The position numbers and the translations under genes are program-made. A DNA stretch of 64,000 bases from a virus. Taxonomy: Duplodnaviria > Caudoviricetes. Positions 1,154 to 25,421 of this stretch are shown here, piece by piece (position 1 is the first letter of the stretch; each line of letters begins with the position of its first letter). The stretch lies in IMG/VR virus record IMGVR_UViG_3300017917_003016, positions 128,001 to 192,000 of that record, one strand, 5' to 3'. Below the pieces are notes generated by a model. That model did not search any database, had not been told where the DNA came from, and worked only from the letters and a program-made list of their open reading frames with translations.

Positions 1154-1228
1154 CGCGGGATAGTGAAATGGCATCACGGTGGTCTCATAAGCCACAGTTC
1201 CTAGTTCGAATCTAGGTCTCCGCAACCA
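1154..1228 (+). tRNA. tRNA-Met(CAT), initiator-like
   Basis: Cloverleaf, CAT anticodon, C1:A72 mismatch, encoded CCA; one extra base in 3' acceptor strand. Confidence 0.8.
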
Positions 1229-1234
1229 GATTTT

Positions 1235-1309
1235 GCCGCGTTAGCACAGTGGTAGTGCAACGGTTTTGTAAACCGTAGGTCGTCTGTTCGAATCAGACAC
1301 GCGGCACCA
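1235..1309 (+). tRNA. tRNA-Thr(TGT)
   Basis: Cloverleaf, acggt-tt TGT aa-accgt, CCA end. Confidence 0.95.
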
Positions 1310-1316
1310 GATTATT

Positions 1317-1399
1317 GCCCGGGTGGTGGAATTGGTAGACACGCTGGTCTTAGAAGCCAGTGCTTCGGCGTAAGTGTTCGAGTCTCTTCTTGGGCACCA
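1317..1399 (+). tRNA. tRNA-Leu(TAG)
   Basis: Type II cloverleaf with variable arm, TAG anticodon, CCA end. Confidence 0.92.
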
Positions 1400-1406
1400 A
1401 AGTTTT

Positions 1407-1480
1407 GCGGCGTTCGTAAAATGGTATTACCTTAGCCTTCCAAGCTAAAGTCGCGAGTTCGATTCTCGCACGCCGCTCCA
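1407..1480 (+). tRNA. tRNA-Gly(TCC)
   Basis: Cloverleaf, TCC anticodon, U73, CCA end. Confidence 0.95.
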
Positions 1481-1484
1481 AGTT

Positions 1485-1576
1485 TCACATAAGTCAGATG
1501 AAGATGATGCCGTTGAAAGCGTGTGAAGATAGTGGACGATAAAACTTTAATTATAGCAGTACACTGGCTTATGTGA
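1485..1576 (+). ncRNA. Putative stem-loop RNA between tRNA-Gly and tRNA-Ala
   Basis: 13-bp inverted repeat tcacataagtcag (1485-1497) / ctggcttatgtga (1564-1576) with one G-U pair. Confidence 0.4.
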
Positions 1577-1579
1577 TTT

Positions 1580-1655
1580 GGGGGTGTAGCTCAGTTGGGA
1601 GAGCGCCAGCTTTGCAAGCTGGATGTCGCAAGTTCGATCCTTGTCACCTCCACCA
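1580..1655 (+). tRNA. tRNA-Ala(TGC)
   Basis: Cloverleaf, TGC anticodon, G3:U70, CCA end. Confidence 0.95.
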
Positions 1656-1662
1656 AATTTCT

Positions 1663-1738
1663 GCGGGCGTAACTCAGTTGGGAGAGTGCAACCTTGCCAA
1701 GGTTGATGTCGAGAGTTCGAACCTCTTCGCCCGCTCCA
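1663..1738 (+). tRNA. tRNA-Gly(GCC)
   Basis: Cloverleaf, GCC anticodon, CCA end. Confidence 0.95.
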
Positions 1739-1745
1739 TGTTTTT

Positions 1746-1821
1746 GGAAGGTTAGCTCAGTTGGTAGAGCATCGCCCTTACAAGGCGAGGGTCACTGGTT
1801 CGAGCCCAGTACCTTCCACCA
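1746..1821 (+). tRNA. tRNA-Val(TAC)
   Basis: Cloverleaf, TAC anticodon, CCA end. Confidence 0.95.
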
Positions 1822-1830
1822 AACACTACC

Positions 1831-2039
1831 GTGTCCTGACGGTTTATCAGGAGGTTGTGAGTATAGGTTGGCCAAACCTTCCAGAAACTCTCAGGTGCTC
1901 TGTCCACCTTAAGGCTACAGCGTAGACGTAGGCCCTGCGATAACGGCCCGCAGGTGTGATGTTCCTCTAGAGTGAACATACGGACAGGGTAACAACTCAG
2001 TTAGGGGCCATGGTGGTGCAGGTAGCCTAACACTGACAC
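1831..2039 (+). ncRNA. Putative structured non-coding RNA (multi-helix, possible pseudoknot)
   Basis: Several complementary segments in a 210-nt non-coding spacer: 1831-1835/2035-2039, 1836-1839/1847-1850, 1854-1858/1992-1996, 1865-1869/1875-1879, 1898-1905/1982-1989, 1934-1939/1949-1954, 1959-1964/1974-1979, 1912-1918/2022-2028. Confidence 0.55.
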
Positions 2040-2040
2040 T

Positions 2041-2117
2041 TCCCCGATAGCTCAGTTGGTAGTAGCAATGGACTGTTAATCCATGTGTCCCTGGTTCGAG
2101 CCCAGGTCGGGGAGCCA
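2041..2117 (+). tRNA. tRNA-Asn(GTT)
   Basis: Cloverleaf, GTT anticodon, G73, CCA end. Confidence 0.95.
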
Positions 2118-2122
2118 TTATT

Positions 2123-2199
2123 CGGACATTAGCGCAGCCCGGTAGCGCATCTGCTTTGGGAGCAGAGGGTCGTAGGTTCGAATCCTACATGTCCGACCA
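2123..2199 (+). tRNA. tRNA-Pro(TGG)
   Basis: Cloverleaf, TGG anticodon, C1-G72, CCA end. Confidence 0.95.
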
Positions 2200-2224
2200 T
2201 TTTTAATTTAACTAAAGGTAATGT

Positions 2225-2695
2225 ATGCAAAAACTTGACTTTGACGAAGTGCGGACGTTTATTCAGCAGCAAAGCCCAGAAACCAAAATCTACATTGGTG
2301 GCGATAGTCGTAGATTTCGTAAGGACAATACCTGGCATGCTGAATACACCCTTGCTGTTGTAGTTCATATCGATGGCAAGCATGGCTGCAAGATTTTTGG
2401 TGAGTCTTGCATTGAGCGTGATTTTGATCAACGTCGAGACCGCCCTAGCATGCGTCTTATGAATGAAGTCTACAAGATTAGTGAACTTTACCTTAAGTTA
2501 CACGAAGTTTTAGAAGATCGTGATGTTGAAGTACACCTAGATATTAACCCCAATGAAATGTACGGCAGTAGTTGTGTGGTACAACAGGCAGTGGGTTATA
2601 TTCGTGGTGTATGTAATGTTGTACCAATGGTTAAGCCTCGTGCGTTTGCTGCCAGTTACGCCGCAGACAGACTCAAGGAGGTATTGGCAGCATAA
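2225..2695 (+). CDS. RNase H-like protein (YkuK/DUF458-like)
   Basis: IYIGGDS...AVVVH...G...IF, RLMNEV, EVHLDINP, AASYAAD pattern typical of the family. Confidence 0.75.
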   Translation: MQKLDFDEVRTFIQQQSPETKIYIGGDSRRFRKDNTWHAEYTLAVVVHIDGKHGCKIFGESCIERDFDQRRDRPSMRLMNEVYKISELYLKLHEVLEDRDVEVHLDINPNEMYGSSCVVQQAVGYIRGVCNVVPMVKPRAFAASYAADRLKEVLAA

Positions 2696-2703
2696 AAGTT
2701 TAC

Positions 2704-2779
2704 GGGACGGTAGCTCAGTTGGTAGAGCAGCGGACTTTTAATCCGTTGGTCGCGAGTTCGAACCTCGCTCGTCCTACCA
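2704..2779 (+). tRNA. tRNA-Lys(TTT)
   Basis: Cloverleaf, TTT anticodon, CCA end. Confidence 0.95.
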
Positions 2780-2799
2780 ATATTAAAGGAGATCACAAA

Positions 2800-2982
2800 A
2801 TGAAAACGGTGGTTTTTAAAAATCGAAGATCAAATGAAAAATTTGTCTGCGACAACGTCCGTGATGTCCGTGTGATTGAAGGAGTTGAATATCTACAGGT
2901 ACATCGTCCGGACAATCCTAGAAACTTTTTGATGCGTAAAGATGCACTAGAAAGGGTAGAATCATCCCGCTTGCCGCGTTAG
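2800..2982 (+). CDS. Small hypothetical protein (60 aa)
   Basis: AAGGAG RBS then ATG at 2800; upstream part of tracked ORF overlaps tRNA-Lys. Confidence 0.65.
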   Translation: MKTVVFKNRRSNEKFVCDNVRDVRVIEGVEYLQVHRPDNPRNFLMRKDALERVESSRLPR

Positions 2983-3324
2983 GAAGTTGGCTCGCATGCT
3001 CTTTGGTTTGAAATATTCACGCACAACTTCTTTGACAATATCTATGCTGAATTCTTTGCAACTAAAAACGTCTAGATATAGATCGCCGGTTGAATCTATA
3101 AAGTGTGCAACAATACTGGATGTAACTATGATCTGCACAGCAGTGAATCCTGCTTTGTCGGGTTGATCTCCTGCTGTGTATTCTATCCAAGGTGTGCCAA
3201 TTGGCTCCATGTCAATTCTTTGCACTAGTTCTTCGATAAAGTTTTTAACATTCCATTTTTCCATGATCAGTGCACGGTTGCAGTCATGACAGTCTAATGT
3301 TAGATGATAACCCCAAAAACTCAT
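2962..3324 (-). CDS. speD: S-adenosylmethionine decarboxylase proenzyme (pyruvoyl-dependent, class 1b-like)
   Basis: GYHLTLDC, GFTAVQIIVTSSIVAHF, YLDVFSC match the SpeD fold and autocleavage region. Confidence 0.8.
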   Translation of the reverse strand: MSFWGYHLTLDCHDCNRALIMEKWNVKNFIEELVQRIDMEPIGTPWIEYTAGDQPDKAGFTAVQIIVTSSIVAHFIDSTGDLYLDVFSCKEFSIDIVKEVVREYFKPKSMRANFLTRQAG

Positions 3325-3395
3325 TGATGTCTCCTTGACATAGAATTCGTAAGAAAGTATAGTTATTTATTGTGCAGAGCAAAAAGTTAGATATA

Positions 3396-3469
3396 CCCGG
3401 TGTAGTTTAATGGTAGAACCGCAGCCTCCAAATCTGCATGTGGGAGTTCGATTCTCTCCACCGGGCCCA
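3396..3469 (+). tRNA. tRNA-Trp(CCA)
   Basis: Cloverleaf, CCA anticodon, CCA end; atypical C73 and C31:U39. Confidence 0.85.
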
Positions 3470-3474
3470 TTTAT

Positions 3475-3552
3475 GTAGAGGTGGCAGAGTGGCCCAATGC
3501 AAGGGATTGCAAATCCCTAAAACCGTGAGTTCGAATCTCACCCTCTACTCCA
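3475..3552 (+). tRNA. tRNA-Cys(GCA)
   Basis: Cloverleaf, GCA anticodon, U73, CCA end. Confidence 0.93.
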
Positions 3553-4047
3553 TTACCTGCACTGTTCTATTAGATTGGGCACTGCAAACCCTGTACTACC
3601 GTGTTTTTTCAAAAAATTACTCTGTGCGGTATAGGCATGCTGTTCGCTCTTAGCCCAGTGTAGGCAGTCTGGTTCATTTTTAAACAAATTGTTTTTTACC
3701 TGAGCCCAGTGTACTAATTCATGAAATACCACACTGGCAGTGAATAGGTTAATCTGCAGCAATGCTGGACTGATCAGTATCTCACCAGTCTCGTCGTCTG
3801 TGATAGCAGCCACATGACAGTCATGATTGACATCTTTGCAGTAGGCTGCTTCTATGGCCTGCCTGCTGGCTAGATAAACTTTGGGTTGTTCTTTAGGCAA
3901 AGGTAATCTGGTTATTTCAGTTATTTCTGTCATCAAAGGTCTGATCAGATTCTCATACATAATTGGCGGAATTGGAGTCTTAGAAATTTCTTGTGCATGG
4001 CTCCGGGCTGTGACCAGCAGCGCCAGGAGGAATATAATTTTTTTCAT
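3553..4047 (-). CDS. Secreted HExxH (zincin-like) protein, related to 593..1099
   Basis: Signal peptide; VFHELVHWAQ followed by SEQHAY. Confidence 0.6.
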   Translation of the reverse strand: MKKIIFLLALLVTARSHAQEISKTPIPPIMYENLIRPLMTEITEITRLPLPKEQPKVYLASRQAIEAAYCKDVNHDCHVAAITDDETGEILISPALLQINLFTASVVFHELVHWAQVKNNLFKNEPDCLHWAKSEQHAYTAQSNFLKKHGSTGFAVPNLIEQCR

Positions 4048-4078
4048 TTTAATTCCAAGTATCTACATACTTATGCTA

Positions 4079-4155
4079 GCCCCCGTAGCTCAGTGGACCA
4101 GAGCGGTGCGCTTCGAACGCACGGGTCGGGAGTTCGAATCTCTCCGGGGGCTCCA
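4079..4155 (+). tRNA. tRNA-Arg(TCG)
   Basis: Cloverleaf, gtgcg-ct TCG aa-cgcac, CCA end. Confidence 0.93.
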
Positions 4156-4214
4156 AATAAATAACTGTTGACAGCGGTTTAATGTATTTGATTTGATTTT
4201 TCATAAATAAAATT

Positions 4215-4850
4215 ATGCATACTTGTTTATACTGTCAAAAAAATTTTACTAACCTGGGTGGTTTGGGGGCGCATCACCCTTATTGTAAATCTAACCCAGA
4301 AAGAAAACAGCGTACAAAATCTCCCAATGCACATCGTAAAAAAGGTTCAATACCCTGGAACAAAGGGTTATCTATAGAAACTGATCAAAGAATAAAACCA
4401 AGATTAGAACTACAAGGTAAAAGATTTGGTGCTTCGTTAAACGGTCACAGTGAAGAGACTAAGAAAAAACTATCAGAAATCGCCAAAGAACGTAAATTAG
4501 GTGGATATGTAAAAGGCTCCGGAAGAGGTAAAAAAGGCTGGTACAAAGGATTTTTTTGCGACAGTAGTTGGGAACTTGCCTATGTAATTTATTGTTTAGA
4601 ACACGGTATAGATATTAAAAGAAATACAGAAATCAGAGAATACATATGGAAAGGGCAAGTTAAAAAATATATTCCTGATTTTAATGTACAAGGTGTAATA
4701 ACTGAAATTAAGGGTTACAAGACAGAACAATGGCTAGCAAAATTAAAAGCAAATATTGATGTAAAAGTCTTGTATGAAAAAGATTTAGAGTATATAATAG
4801 AGTATGTTAGTAGCAAATACGGTAAAGATTTTGTAAAGTTGTACGAGTAA
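4215..4850 (+). CDS. Free-standing homing-type endonuclease (zinc finger + NUMOD3-like + PD-(D/E)xK domain)
   Basis: CLYC...HHPYC finger, HSEETKKKLS repeat-like motif, DSSWE...YIPDF...EIKGY nuclease motif; CATAAATA at 4202-4209 upstream. Confidence 0.7.
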   Translation: MHTCLYCQKNFTNLGGLGAHHPYCKSNPERKQRTKSPNAHRKKGSIPWNKGLSIETDQRIKPRLELQGKRFGASLNGHSEETKKKLSEIAKERKLGGYVKGSGRGKKGWYKGFFCDSSWELAYVIYCLEHGIDIKRNTEIREYIWKGQVKKYIPDFNVQGVITEIKGYKTEQWLAKLKANIDVKVLYEKDLEYIIEYVSSKYGKDFVKLYE

Positions 4851-4855
4851 TGTTT

Positions 4856-4946
4856 GGAGGGGCAAACCGATTGGTGACGGTACCTGTCTTGAAAACAGTT
4901 GAGCGTTAATAGCGCCTTGGGGGTTCGACTCCGCCTCCCTCCGCCA
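4856..4946 (+). tRNA. tRNA-Ser(TGA)
   Basis: Type II cloverleaf with long variable arm, TGA anticodon, G73, CCA end. Confidence 0.9.
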
Positions 4947-4961
4947 ATTTTATGAGGCTGT

Positions 4962-5582
4962 ATGATTAAACTGCTAGGAAAACTACCGCGAGAAATTTGG
5001 GTAGCCTGCTCAGGTGGTGTCGATAGTCTTGCTGCTGTAGATTTTCTCAAAAACAATCATCGCGTTAGTGTGGTTTTTGTGCATCATGGCACAGAAGCCA
5101 GCGACCAAGGCATGATCAAAGTCTGCGAATATGCAGACACACACGCACTGCCGGTAGTGGTAAAATACATCGATACCCATCGGCCGCGCCAGCAAAGTCA
5201 GGAAGAATACTGGCGTCGAGAACGCTATGAGTTTTTTGATGAATTGCACAACGAATGGCCGTTGGTCACTGCACATCATCTAGATGACTGTGTGGAAACT
5301 TATGTATGGAGTATGTGTCATGGCCGCGGCAAGGTAATTCCCCATCGTCGTGGTCGCGTGATTAGGCCGTTTCTTCTTAACTCTAAACAGGAATTGATTG
5401 ATTGGGCTGAACTGCATGGCCTGTCCTGGCATGATGATGCCAGCAATCACGATATTAAGTATACACGCAATCTTGTACGACACGAAGTACTTCCACAGGT
5501 TCTACGGGTCAACCCCGGCATCGCACAAGTTGTGCGCAGGATTGTTAAAGATAATTTTGATCTTGACAGGCATCAATACTGA
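4962..5582 (+). CDS. tilS: tRNA(Ile)-lysidine synthetase, catalytic domain only
   Basis: SGGVDS PP-loop, RYEFF, TAHHLDD..ET, RPFL, DASN...YTRN..RH motifs. Confidence 0.9.
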   Translation: MIKLLGKLPREIWVACSGGVDSLAAVDFLKNNHRVSVVFVHHGTEASDQGMIKVCEYADTHALPVVVKYIDTHRPRQQSQEEYWRRERYEFFDELHNEWPLVTAHHLDDCVETYVWSMCHGRGKVIPHRRGRVIRPFLLNSKQELIDWAELHGLSWHDDASNHDIKYTRNLVRHEVLPQVLRVNPGIAQVVRRIVKDNFDLDRHQY

Positions 5583-5591
5583 ATATATACT
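5563..5591 (+). promoter_or_regulatory. sigma70-type promoter for tRNA-Ile2
   Basis: TTGACA (5563-5568), 17 nt, TATACT (5586-5591), overlapping tilS 3' end. Confidence 0.7.
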
Positions 5592-5607
5592 ATGTAATGA
5601 AAGTTAC

Positions 5608-5684
<77 letters not shown>

Positions 5685-5704
5685 ATATATTACTAGGTTT
5701 AATC

Positions 5705-5914
5705 ATGATAGAAAAAGAGTTGATTGATCTAATGCTAAGTATTAAGCATGAATTAATTGCTATCAGAACTGATCTAACATTGATTAATCATGATGTAATT
5801 AAAATTAACGAACGTATAGATACGTTGACAACTTTGGCTATGCAACCTCAAGAAAGTATTGGAATCGCTCCAAACACACCGCATCCAAGTTATCTTCCTC
5901 CAGAGGTAATGTAG
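5705..5914 (+). CDS. Hypothetical protein
   Basis: In-frame ATG at 5705 after the tRNA. Confidence 0.5.
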   Translation: MIEKELIDLMLSIKHELIAIRTDLTLINHDVIKINERIDTLTTLAMQPQESIGIAPNTPHPSYLPPEVM

Positions 5915-5947
5915 TCAAAACTTAAATTATTTTATAAGGAAACTAAA

Positions 5948-6277
5948 ATGTTAACAATGCTTTCTGTAGTAGTGGTACTGCTGGTAGCAGGGTATATTAT
6001 TAATACACGACTGCAAAAGTCGCAGACTAAGACCAGCCAACCTACTCCCACTGAACCCGTCAAAGTTACTGTCAGTGAAGAAGTTGTCACAGGGTTGACT
6101 GATCAAAAGATTGATGAAGTTGCTGCGGTAGTCGAGGGTGTTGAAGCAGTAGTGCCAGAAACTAAGGTAGAGGTTGTAGTCGAAACTACTGCCAAGAAGC
6201 CTGCAGCACGTAAGTCTTCAGCACGTAAGCCCGCTGCTAAGAAGGCACCTGCTAAGAAGCCTGCTGCTAAGAAGTAA
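5948..6277 (+). CDS. Membrane-anchored protein with Lys/Ala/Pro-rich histone-like tail
   Basis: N-terminal hydrophobic helix; C-terminal KKPAARK/KKAPAKKPAAKK repeats. Confidence 0.7.
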   Translation: MLTMLSVVVVLLVAGYIINTRLQKSQTKTSQPTPTEPVKVTVSEEVVTGLTDQKIDEVAAVVEGVEAVVPETKVEVVVETTAKKPAARKSSARKPAAKKAPAKKPAAKK

Positions 6278-6286
6278 AGTTTAATT

Positions 6287-6374
6287 GCCCGGGTGGTGAA
6301 ATAGGTAGACACAACGGACTTAAAATCCGTCGCCCTAAACAGGCGTACCGGTTCGATTCCGGTCCCGGGCACCA
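6287..6374 (+). tRNA. tRNA-Leu(TAA)
   Basis: Type II cloverleaf, TAA anticodon, CCA end. Confidence 0.95.
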
Positions 6375-6382
6375 ACAATACT

Positions 6383-6586
6383 ATGGACGTTAATCAACTT
6401 ATTAATCGTGTAAAAAATCTCCAGTACTGGGAAGTGACAATACCAGTACCACCGTTGGTAAAGTTTTCTGGGCGTGTGCCTTTTACTGTAAAAATAGTTG
6501 ATGACCGTGCTGTATGTAAGGTTTTAGCAGTTGACATAGTTGAAGCAGAACGCAGGGTTTTAGAATACTTTAATTCACAAGTTTAA
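6383..6586 (+). CDS. Hypothetical protein
   Basis: Fills gap between two tRNAs. Confidence 0.55.
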   Translation: MDVNQLINRVKNLQYWEVTIPVPPLVKFSGRVPFTVKIVDDRAVCKVLAVDIVEAERRVLEYFNSQV

Positions 6587-6587
6587 A

Positions 6588-6662
6588 CTGCTCGTAGCCT
6601 AATGGAAAGGCAACACTCTTCTAAAGTGTCTTATGGGGGTTCGAGTCCCTCCGGGCAGGCCA
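6588..6662 (+). tRNA. tRNA-Arg(TCT)
   Basis: Cloverleaf, acact-ct TCT aa-agtgt, CCA end. Confidence 0.93.
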
Positions 6663-6668
6663 AGTTAA

Positions 6669-6759
6669 GGAGAGTTGGCCGAGCGGTCGATGGCACCGGT
6701 CTACTAAACCGGCATACAGTTAACCTGTATCCAGGGTTCGAATCCCTGACTCTCCGCCA
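6669..6759 (+). tRNA. tRNA-Ser(ACT), rare A34 anticodon
   Basis: ccggt-ct ACT aa-accgg, long variable arm atacag/ctgtat, G73, CCA end. Confidence 0.85.
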
Positions 6760-19947: not shown

Positions 19948-20538
19948 ATGCCTAATCTAGTACCAATGGTTCTTGAACGCACCAGTCAAGGTGAACGCAG
20001 TTATGATTTGTATTCAAGACTGCTCAAAGACCGCATTGTGATTCTTGACACTGACGTCAACGAACACTCAGCAAGTCTTATTGTTGCTCAATTGCTGTTC
20101 CTTGAAGCAGAAGATGCTGAAAAAGATATTTTGTTCTATATCAACAGTCCAGGGGGTATTATCACTGCTGGTATGAGCATTTATGATACCATGCAGTTTA
20201 TTCGTCCTCAGGTCAGCACCATTGTAATGGGACAGGCCTGCTCAATGGGCAGTTTTCTTGCACAAGCAGGGGCCCCAGGCAAACGTATGATGCTGCCCAA
20301 TGCTCGACACATGATTCACCAACCTAGCGGTGGTGCACGTGGCATGGCTTCAGACATTGAAATTTCCTACAAGGAAATCATGCACTGGAAGCAACGTCTA
20401 ACAGAACTTTATGTAGAGCACAATACCTCAGGTAAAACCTATGAAGATTTTGAGCGGGACATGGATCGTGACACTTTTATGAGTGCACAGGAATCTCTGG
20501 AGTATGGCCTCTGTGACGAAATTATCACTAAACGATAA
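19948..20538 (+). CDS. clpP: ATP-dependent Clp protease proteolytic subunit
   Basis: [28 protein letters not shown] (catalytic Ser), MIHQP (His), RD. Confidence 0.95.
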
Positions 20539-24641: not shown

Positions 24642-24773
24642 ATGAAAGTCAAAAACCTAATTAAAAAACTTTATAGTTCTATAATCAGCGGTCGTAAAAA
24701 TTTAGAAAAGAAAGTCTACGAAAAAATAACTCGTAAAAGTTTGAAGCACAAGCACACACAGGCTGTGAGATAA
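24642..24773 (+). CDS. Small basic protein (43 aa)
   Basis: Manual translation MKVKNLIKKLY...SLKHKHTQAVR. Confidence 0.5.
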   Translation: MKVKNLIKKLYSSIISGRKNLEKKVYEKITRKSLKHKHTQAVR

Positions 24774-24813
24774 AATTATGAATTATAAAATTGGTGAATA
24801 TTTACTGACTGCA

Positions 24814-24842
24814 TTGACATACATTGCCATTGCTGTTATAAT
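24814..24842 (+). promoter_or_regulatory. Consensus sigma70 promoter with extended -10, driving ssrA
   Basis: TTGACA (24814-24819), 17 nt ending TGT, TATAAT (24837-24842). Confidence 0.85.
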
Positions 24843-24848
24843 TATTGA

Positions 24849-25350
24849 ACTATTTTTGAAGTAAATAAGAGTATTGCTGTATGAAGTTGATGGAAAGGTG
24901 TTCTGGACGCGGGTTCGACTCCCGCCGACTCCACCAAAAATGCACTGTATGACTGAAGACCAAAGACGTTACGCCTATGAATTGTTTTACCTAGTAAAAG
25001 GCCATGTCAAGTATTTTGACGATGCTGACCTAGAGGCCATAGTCAAAGATTATACTCGGCGTCTGTGGTACAATGAAGAAGCACATTTGTACCGTGAAGG
25101 GTTTGAAGAAGCATATCGTGTGTTTTCGCTGGGGTCGTACAGGTTTCGACAGGGCAAATGAGTACGGATATGGACAGCACGGTAGGCGAAGACCGTAAAT
25201 CTAGCAAAACTTATAGATGCCAACACATCTAAATTTGGTACTGCAAAAGTATCTATGGGCCGCGGCTTCCGCTTCGGTACTCGTAGTGCTGAGGCAGTAG
25301 CAGCCTAAACTCTGCAACCACGGGGTTGGTTAGCCTTGTTACCCAATTAA
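24849..25350 (+). ncRNA. ssrA: Circularly permuted (two-piece) tmRNA gene: acceptor piece about 24849-24936, intervening segment 24937-25130, coding piece from 25131
   Basis: T-arm gcggg-ttcgact-cccgc and cgactcc-A-CCA lie upstream of 5' end ggggtcg-tacaggtttcgac; stem has G3:U70; tag frame 25219-25308 ends AVAA-stop; outer ends approximate. Confidence 0.9.
24940..25161 (+). CDS. 73-aa ORF nested in the tmRNA intervening segment
   Basis: ATG 3 nt after CCA (second ATG at 24949); open through IVS; stop lies inside the tmRNA coding piece. Confidence 0.55.
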   Translation: MHCMTEDQRRYAYELFYLVKGHVKYFDDADLEAIVKDYTRRLWYNEEAHLYREGFEEAYRVFSLGSYRFRQGK

Positions 25351-25352
25351 CC

Positions 25353-25377
25353 AAAGCCCACTTCGGTGGGCTTTTTT
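25353..25377 (+). terminator. Intrinsic terminator of ssrA
   Basis: aaagcccac-ttcg-gtgggc-tttttt. Confidence 0.9.
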
Positions 25378-25421
25378 ATCTTGATTATAGACAAAATAAA
25401 TATCTAAAAGGATGAGAAAGC

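Follow-up and report, generated by a model that had tools for sequence, protein, structure and literature searches.

S23p-type proteins of Leptospira and Coxiella are encoded by ORFs within excised intervening sequences (IVS) of 23S rRNA, and homing-endonuclease genes occur in group I introns, including tmRNA introns. Long-range pairing that limits translation to nascent transcripts is a feature of the MS2 maturation gene and of hok mRNA. The tmRNA introns bearing homing-endonuclease genes are mentioned in the paper on the tmRNA database, which lists 11,946 permuted tmRNA genes (PMC11915505), and where the intervening sequences of such genes are presented as non-coding, with a tRNA-Ala gene and a repeat element as their sole unusual contents; the phage Melnitz paper (PMC9004378) describes phage two-piece tmRNAs, including those of pelagimyophages, and no spacer genes. 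Removal of the intervening segment is the work of tRNA-processing enzymes, among which the role of RNase P in tmRNA maturation is established (PMC3985003, PMC11915505). In E. coli, the arfA mRNA loses its stop codon by RNase III cleavage, and the ArfA protein is repressed by tmRNA tagging (PMC3989581).

The locus described here lies in a stretch of 64,000 nucleotides (positions 128,001 to 192,000 of the IMG/VR record IMGVR_UViG_3300017917_003016; hereafter the window), which is part of a 201.7-kb viral contig with a CheckV completeness of 56%, so that a contig of this length at this estimated completeness points to a jumbo phage. With described permuted tmRNA genes (RF04321, RF01850, RF01849; Melnitz, pelagimyophages) it shares the order of acceptor piece, CCA, intervening segment and coding piece, as well as the G3.U70 acceptor stem, the tag frame and the expected removal of the segment by tRNA-processing enzymes. 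Unlike in those genes, the segment carries a protein gene under selection, and the frame of this gene crosses the processing site (Table 1). It also resembles the ORFs of 23S rRNA IVS and group I introns, in that a gene is placed in a stem-closed segment cut from a stable RNA precursor, which would double as an mRNA here too; it differs from them in the host RNA and the processing enzymes, in the lack of homology (Pfam) and of any sign of mobility functions, and in that the ORF overlaps the mature RNA.

Table 1. Coordinates of the features of the permuted tmRNA gene and its nested ORF (positions in the window).
Feature	Position	Strand	Basis or remark
Sigma-70-type promoter (TTGACA, 17 nt, TG-n-TATAAT)	24814-24842	+	12/12 consensus match, extended -10
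Acceptor piece (T-arm, 3' acceptor strand, discriminator, CCA)	24875-24936	+	ARAGORN, Rfam; nearly invariant in relatives
3' acceptor strand CGACUCC	24926-24932		
Discriminator A	24933		
CCA	24934-24936		
Spacer (intervening segment), 194 nt, expected to be lost on maturation	24937-25130	+	
Closing helix, 5' strand (includes AUG 24949-24951)	24937-24951 (24937-24945, 24947-24951)	+	RNAalifold, MFE, pairing probabilities
Nested protein gene (conserved ATG as start; 70 aa)	24949-25161	+	homologues, dN/dS 0.05-0.11, AlphaFold2
Closing helix, 3' strand	25112-25126 (25112-25116, 25118-25126)	+	doubles as the last spacer codons A-Y-R-V-F-S
tmRNA coding piece	25131-25352	+	ARAGORN, Rfam; predicted RNase P cut 5' of G25131
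5' acceptor strand GGGGUCG	25131-25137	+	
Tag reading frame, 29 residues ending AVAA + stop	25219-25308	+	ARAGORN
Intrinsic-terminator-like hairpin and T run, closing the transcription unit	25353-25382	+	consensus match

Sequence reading, ARAGORN and Rfam all agree on a permuted two-piece tmRNA at this locus. The ARAGORN tmRNA* call extends over 24844-25399, and the Rfam tmRNA_permuted model (RF04321) is matched over its positions 1-213 at 24875-25308, with 119 bits vs. a gathering score of 47; the beta_tmRNA model scores 86 bits at the same tmRNA. The two pieces are joined by a 7-bp acceptor stem (24926-24932 with 25131-25137), in which the alanine identity pair G3.U70 is formed by G25133 and U24930, and which covaries among relatives with the G.U pair retained. 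Judged by its sequence, this tmRNA is a functional two-piece gene. The contrary reading, by which the tmRNA lost its ability to mature when the ORF was inserted and survives only as decaying sequence on either side of it, could draw on the decayed acceptor pieces found next to the ORF in some relatives (L122, L004, L046, L043) and on the aberrantly long tag frame of the window. We consider it very improbable, given that the acceptor piece, its stem, the tRNA-like domain and the closing helix of the spacer are nearly invariant or covarying across relatives, while the synonymous (third) positions of the ORF are saturated, and given the full-length Rfam match and a tag frame that is intact, ends in AA and a stop codon and is followed by a terminator.

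The tag itself is atypical in length, with 29 residues in the window vs. 12-14 residues ending in ALAA in close relatives, and has a basic, aromatic middle part. The closest relative (L041, with a nested protein 90% identical) has a normal 14-residue tag ending in ALAA, and the tag of L002 has 12 residues; it is the tag region, not the tRNA-like domain, that diverges sharply between the window and its relatives. Elsewhere in the window, a phage ClpP gene (19987-20532, + strand; PF00574, 258 bits) is located 4.4 kb upstream of the tmRNA, and 18 tRNA genes, all on the + strand, are clustered at 1155-6759, including two tRNA-Met, two each for Leu, Gly, Arg and Ser, and a tRNA-Ser whose anticodon, ACT, is unusual. 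A search for SmpB found none in 201 kb of the contig. The tmRNA is preceded by two tiny ORFs, 24642-24773 (43 aa, basic) and 24778-24864 (28 aa, hydrophobic), neither of which gave family matches of note; the consensus promoter overlaps the second one.

A preliminary description of this DNA had reported a 73-codon ORF, from ATG 24940 to TGA 25159-25161, filling the 194-nt spacer, and every coordinate was confirmed, including the position of the stop codon 31 nt inside the coding piece and of S63 as the final complete codon ahead of the expected RNase P cut. The start common to the protein family is located 12 codons before the FYLVKG motif, at ATG 24949, i.e., 12 nt past the CCA (+13). Of the resulting 70 residues, 1-60 are encoded in the spacer, and the last 10 together with the stop codon are read from the tmRNA coding piece. 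The claim of a near-leaderless start does not survive, because the conserved start is ATG 24949 and not ATG 24940 (+4), which is present in the window only and is replaced by ATA, ACA or GTG in relatives. No Shine-Dalgarno sequence was found before either ATG. Another candidate, a second spacer ORF (41 aa, from +137, in another frame), was rejected as spurious, since it recurs only through its overlap with conserved sequence. The nested gene is present in a single copy in 201 kb of the contig.

The preliminary description had asked for conservation and purifying selection of the ORF inside the spacer, and both are observed, the selection being strong. Pairwise dN/dS values are 0.05-0.11 among the four distinct sequences with the gene inside the spacer, namely the window, L041 (with an identical protein in L485), L121 and L002. 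The window and L041 differ by 3, 2 and 19 changes at codon positions 1, 2 and 3, respectively, and among these four sequences third-position changes number 19-28 vs. 2-15 at positions 1 and 2. Chance does not account for the ORF: when long spacers were shuffled, just 2% of them had an ORF that took up 80% or more of their length, and the homologues run into the hundreds. One could still suppose an untranslated ORF, whose conservation reflects the structure of the spacer RNA and not a protein: its ends overlap a conserved RNA helix, it is not preceded by a Shine-Dalgarno sequence, and its product has no match in Pfam, PHROGs or fold libraries. This reading is hardly tenable and in our judgement already refuted by the substitution pattern, with its low dN/dS and its excess of third-position changes; moreover, homologues down to 37% identity are encoded outside any tmRNA with their own starts and stops, the protein yields a confident three-helix model, and the spacer interior has no conserved structure. 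Thus, we hold the ORF to be almost certainly a real nested gene.

Its product belongs to a large family, represented by 18 relatives of 64-86 aa with 75-91% identity (in a search of 5.8 billion proteins), by 39 loci with 37-74% identity in viral contigs, and by 355 loci in metagenomes confirmed by a profile scan; an exhaustive profile search yielded 153 clusters at 50% identity. The family, as defined here (~60-75 aa, three helices), is characterized by the motifs F[YW]xVKG at 12 codons past the start, [KR]RLW[YW]NEE (RLWYNEE) and GFE/D-E-A-Y/W (GFEEAY) near the C-terminus, all of which are present in the window protein. Residues F16, K20, R41-L42-W43, N45-E46-E47 and G54-F55 are invariant in the family alignment, and the ends are variable. 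The nested protein is acidic and aromatic, and its AlphaFold2 model consists of three helices (mean pLDDT 82), with only the last residues poorly predicted. The conserved core extends as far as residue 59-60 of 73, and the C-termini following GFEEAY vary across the family; by alignment and model, the C-terminal tail appears free of constraint at the protein level. Nothing usable came out of searches of Pfam (E up to 10), PHROGs, PDB and BFVD (both by Foldseek) or the ESM Atlas, tblastn with three family members gave no match among 50,697 records of cultured phages, and megablast of the 12 kb around the locus against cultured phages returned nothing. The family is so far known from uncultured contigs only. 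As a side observation, the public gene call for the L485 copy (L485:408-644, protein P0002) reads the TGA at +31 as W, and the database protein is 8 residues too long; the shifted stop at +58 suggested by this entry was rejected as a genetic-code artefact of the gene caller, the contig having TGA at +31.

The promoter upstream of the acceptor piece is a consensus match only; it would start the pre-tmRNA ~25 nt before this piece. A conserved position of the promoter was considered and rejected: the perfect promoter, 33 nt ahead of the acceptor piece, occurs in the window alone, and in relatives promoter-like sites are found 130-270 nt further upstream. Since the interval between the CCA and the ORF leaves no room for a promoter, the only mRNA of the nested gene in the window should be the pre-tmRNA or upstream read-through; as far as promoter matches tell, the gene is without a transcript of its own here. 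In phage tmRNA genes of the alpha type (L006:3171-3225, L036:3187-3245, L020 and L032 (minus strand)), the acceptor piece is immediately preceded by a conserved promoter, TTGAC-N17-TATAAAT, which apparently falls within the Rfam alpha_tmRNA model.

All in-spacer relatives with the beta-type tmRNA layout of the window have a spacer of exactly 194 nt. Their consensus fold (RNAalifold, 4 relatives) consists of the acceptor stem, an internal loop with ACCA opposite UCGCU or UCGAU in all four, and a closing helix of 9+5 bp (24937-24945 with 25118-25126, and 24947-24951 with 25112-25116). Within this helix, the AUG at 24949-24951 pairs with CAU in the A58-Y59 codons, and in L002 the helix is maintained despite changes on one or both sides of its pairs. 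For the terminal duplex by itself, the predicted energy is -12.1 to -14.6 kcal/mol in the four in-spacer sequences, and the probability of the AUG being unpaired in the full spacer is ~0 in three of them and 0.07-0.31 over its three bases in L002. Beyond the closing helix no conserved structure was detected in the spacer interior (fold z-score -1.67). The same stem, with no ORF, is found in the short spacers of related tmRNA genes; the gene therefore occupies the apical portion of a hairpin that existed before it. The excised spacer had been envisaged as a near-leaderless non-stop mRNA; with its conserved AUG at +13 predicted to be buried in pairing with the spacer's own 3' end, it should be a poor one. 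The arrangement resembles that of the MS2 maturation gene and hok: by predicted folding, the start is paired with sequence transcribed much later, which would create a kinetic window for initiation; unlike in those systems, the closing helix is at the same time a part of the tRNA-like processing substrate.

Most members of the family reside outside a spacer, with ordinary stops and ribosome-binding sites of their own. We have typed 80 family loci, 13 of them with flanks too short to judge: the ORF follows an acceptor piece at 6 loci, ends no more than 200 nt ahead of a permuted tmRNA of the same orientation at 18 and has a tmRNA elsewhere in the 2-3 kb flank at 8; no tmRNA was found at 35. Among the 67 loci with adequate flanks, a tmRNA thus occurs within 2-3 kb at 32, including 12/12 in a clade of the family tree (support 100/99) in which every member is associated with a beta-type tmRNA gene. 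Members with the ORF in the spacer and members with the ORF upstream are intermingled in this clade. For example, the gene order is upstream gene, acceptor, ORF, coding piece in L121, and homologous upstream gene, ORF with its own stop, acceptor, coding piece in L123. Decayed acceptor remnants directly precede the ORF at L004:1260-1311, L046:980-1029, L043:790-832 and L122:190-265 and 465-520; what is left of the piece is its T-loop and ACCA-like end or just its 5' half. In the phages bearing such remnants, the working tmRNA comes after the family ORF; in L122, remnants lie on both sides of the ORF, and no coding piece is found before the contig end. A further locus (L065:1623-2323) has two acceptor-like pieces, the second one weak, ahead of a single coding piece; the 577 nt that separate the first of them from the coding piece include a 56-aa ORF. 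This locus may represent a two-acceptor intermediate.

Near alpha-type phage tmRNA genes, the family ORF usually ends inside the tmRNA's own promoter (L006, L036); the last codons of the ORF at these two loci are written in the TTGAC-N17-TATAAAT element itself. A divergent member (L248) occupies a 210-nt alpha-type spacer, with its start at +20, its stop at +13 and the AUG again paired. Collectively, these layouts, the intermediates and L248 argue for a long-standing tie of the family to phage tmRNA genes, during which the spacer was entered or left at least twice, and the linkage suggests that the role of the protein is connected with trans-translation.

The nested gene is one of many. A scan of viral contigs with two acceptor-piece patterns produced 237 loci and, with family loci added, 149 unique spacers. 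Among spacers of 140-300 nt, 23 of 30 have a sense ORF that takes up 80% or more of their length, vs. 1 of 30 with such an ORF on the antisense strand and the aforementioned 2% in shuffles. These ORFs fall into at least 17 unrelated families, and the three others tested have dN/dS values of 0.04-0.10. Not all of them have an occluded start region (probability of being unpaired 0.05-1.0). In bacterial genomes, the same alpha-type pattern retrieved 97 unique spacers with a median length of ~28 nt, just one of which reaches 100 nt, with no sense ORF in it. At the level of sequence, the survey and the locus in the window together show that in aquatic phages the spacer serves to house small genes, which it does not do in the bacteria sampled by this pattern. 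One of the other families, a membrane peptide of 38-44 aa with the motif YIVWSICADI, fills alpha-type spacers in L289, L307, L313, L337 and L342; it has its own ribosome-binding site, a dN/dS of 0.04 and a stop that is always UGA, one base before G1 (the first base of the coding piece). Small spacer genes of this kind are missed because intervening segments are treated as disposable and are masked as RNA by annotation pipelines.

The peculiarity of the gene in the window is that the assumed RNase P cleavage site (25130/25131) precedes its stop codon. The same geometry, already pointed out in the preliminary description, recurs in all in-spacer relatives, with the stop at +31 (window, L041/L485, L121), +34 (L002) or +13 (L248); the ORF is conserved, and its homologues do not always stop before the tmRNA 5' end. 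The four in-spacer relatives have UCGAU or UCGCU in the bulge instead of the usual UGAU, and it is this one extra C that removes an in-frame UGA at -1. The extra C is conserved despite saturated synonymous divergence, which may point to maintenance of read-through. Read-through is found in both independent in-spacer lineages of the family (n = 2). Nevertheless, two of three frames read through in any case, and, as far as such frame counts go, the missing in-spacer stop looks like an accident of reading frame. The 17 spacer-ORF families point in the same direction: 5 end early at a stop of their own, 5 use the UGA at -1 and the other 7 read through, and among the 12 without an early stop the split of 5:7 fits chance, being compatible with the 1:2 expected from random frames relative to G1 (binomial probability of at least 5 of 12 at p = 1/3, ~0.37). 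Selection thus seems indifferent to whether the stop falls before or after the cut, as would be expected if ribosomes finish on the uncut precursor. A non-stop fate is also not the general biology of the protein, since most members outside the spacer have ordinary stops.

The preliminary description recognized no described system with such a logic; arfA, however, is a described analogue (PMC3989581). As in arfA, an ORF of ~70 codons has its 3' end in a helix that is the processing site and its functional core upstream of the cut, and run-off translation is predicted to yield a substrate of tmRNA. The two differ in that no sequence similarity exists (no Pfam family at E up to 10), in that the cut is predicted to be made by RNase P within the tmRNA precursor itself, in that the start codon is hidden in the same helix, and in that the non-stop status is not family-wide, although it holds for the in-spacer clade and L248. 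By a switch of the ArfA type, the RNase P cut would sever the ORF from its stop and turn the excised spacer into a non-stop mRNA, whose product would fall to tagging and degradation as long as trans-translation is active and would build up in untagged form once it is saturated; full-length protein would be made when maturation lags, and the protein level would report on tmRNA maturation or activity. The confirmed geometry agrees with this, as does a run-off product that would hold the whole domain, with the conserved core ending right before the cut. So do the conservation of read-through in four distinct beta-type relatives and, separately, in alpha-type L248, the removal of the potential UGA at -1 by the extra bulge C, the physical tie of the family to tmRNA genes, the ClpP encoded by the phage 4.4 kb upstream, and arfA as a precedent for the logic. 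We still regard such a switch as unlikely. With the start buried in a helix of -12 to -15 kcal/mol, new initiation on the excised RNA should be rare, and the leaderless-like ATG 24940 is not conserved. Most members, outside any tmRNA, have ordinary stops and their own ribosome-binding sites, and lineages have repeatedly resolved to an ORF with its own stop followed by the tmRNA, leaving decayed acceptor remnants behind. Finally, the chance-like split between a -1 stop and read-through among unrelated spacer ORFs and the lack of similarity to ArfA also count against it.

The mechanism that we favor, with about an even chance of being correct, is translation of the gene from the nascent pre-tmRNA, with tmRNA tagging as a side reaction at most. 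Under this model, ribosomes would load on the nascent RNA only, during the ~165 nt of transcription before the 3' strand of the helix is made, or, alternatively, while a passing ribosome holds the closing helix open. They would translate 60 spacer codons and 10 tmRNA codons and terminate at the first in-frame stop (+31), giving the protein a C-terminal filler tail of 10 residues dictated by the tmRNA sequence. A ribosome on the 3' part would block formation of both the closing helix and the acceptor stem. Once the ribosomes are gone, the helix and the acceptor stem would fold and hide the start codon, upon which RNase P and the 3' enzymes would cut, releasing the two-piece tmRNA, and the spacer would be discarded. 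Translation and maturation would thereby be mutually exclusive on one molecule. As a side path, if cleavage catches up with a ribosome, that ribosome would stall at S63, to be rescued by tmRNA with tagging of its product.

Overall, this locus brings to light an overlooked example of a stable-RNA precursor that would double as an mRNA in aquatic phages, in this case in a large, uncultured, aquatic one, and a family of 153 clusters without a name. It provides a sharp test case, since the ORF crosses the RNase P site of the very RNA that rescues non-stop ribosomes: a cassette of ~570 nt bears both on (i) the competition between translation and tRNA-type processing on one molecule and (ii) the feedback of trans-translation onto a gene nested in its own RNA. 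A self-referential circuit, in which maturation by RNase P makes the gene's mRNA non-stop, so that stable full-length protein comes from the unprocessed precursor only and, with mature tmRNA active, the product is tagged and destroyed by the phage ClpP system, is in our view rather improbable. If true, it would constitute an ArfA-like sensor inside a tmRNA gene, reporting trans-translation capacity during infection, and the one-base bulge change that removes the UGA at -1 would be the adaptation creating this sensor. Linked to tmRNA genes of two lineages, the family is a candidate phage factor for ribosome rescue or tag-directed proteolysis.
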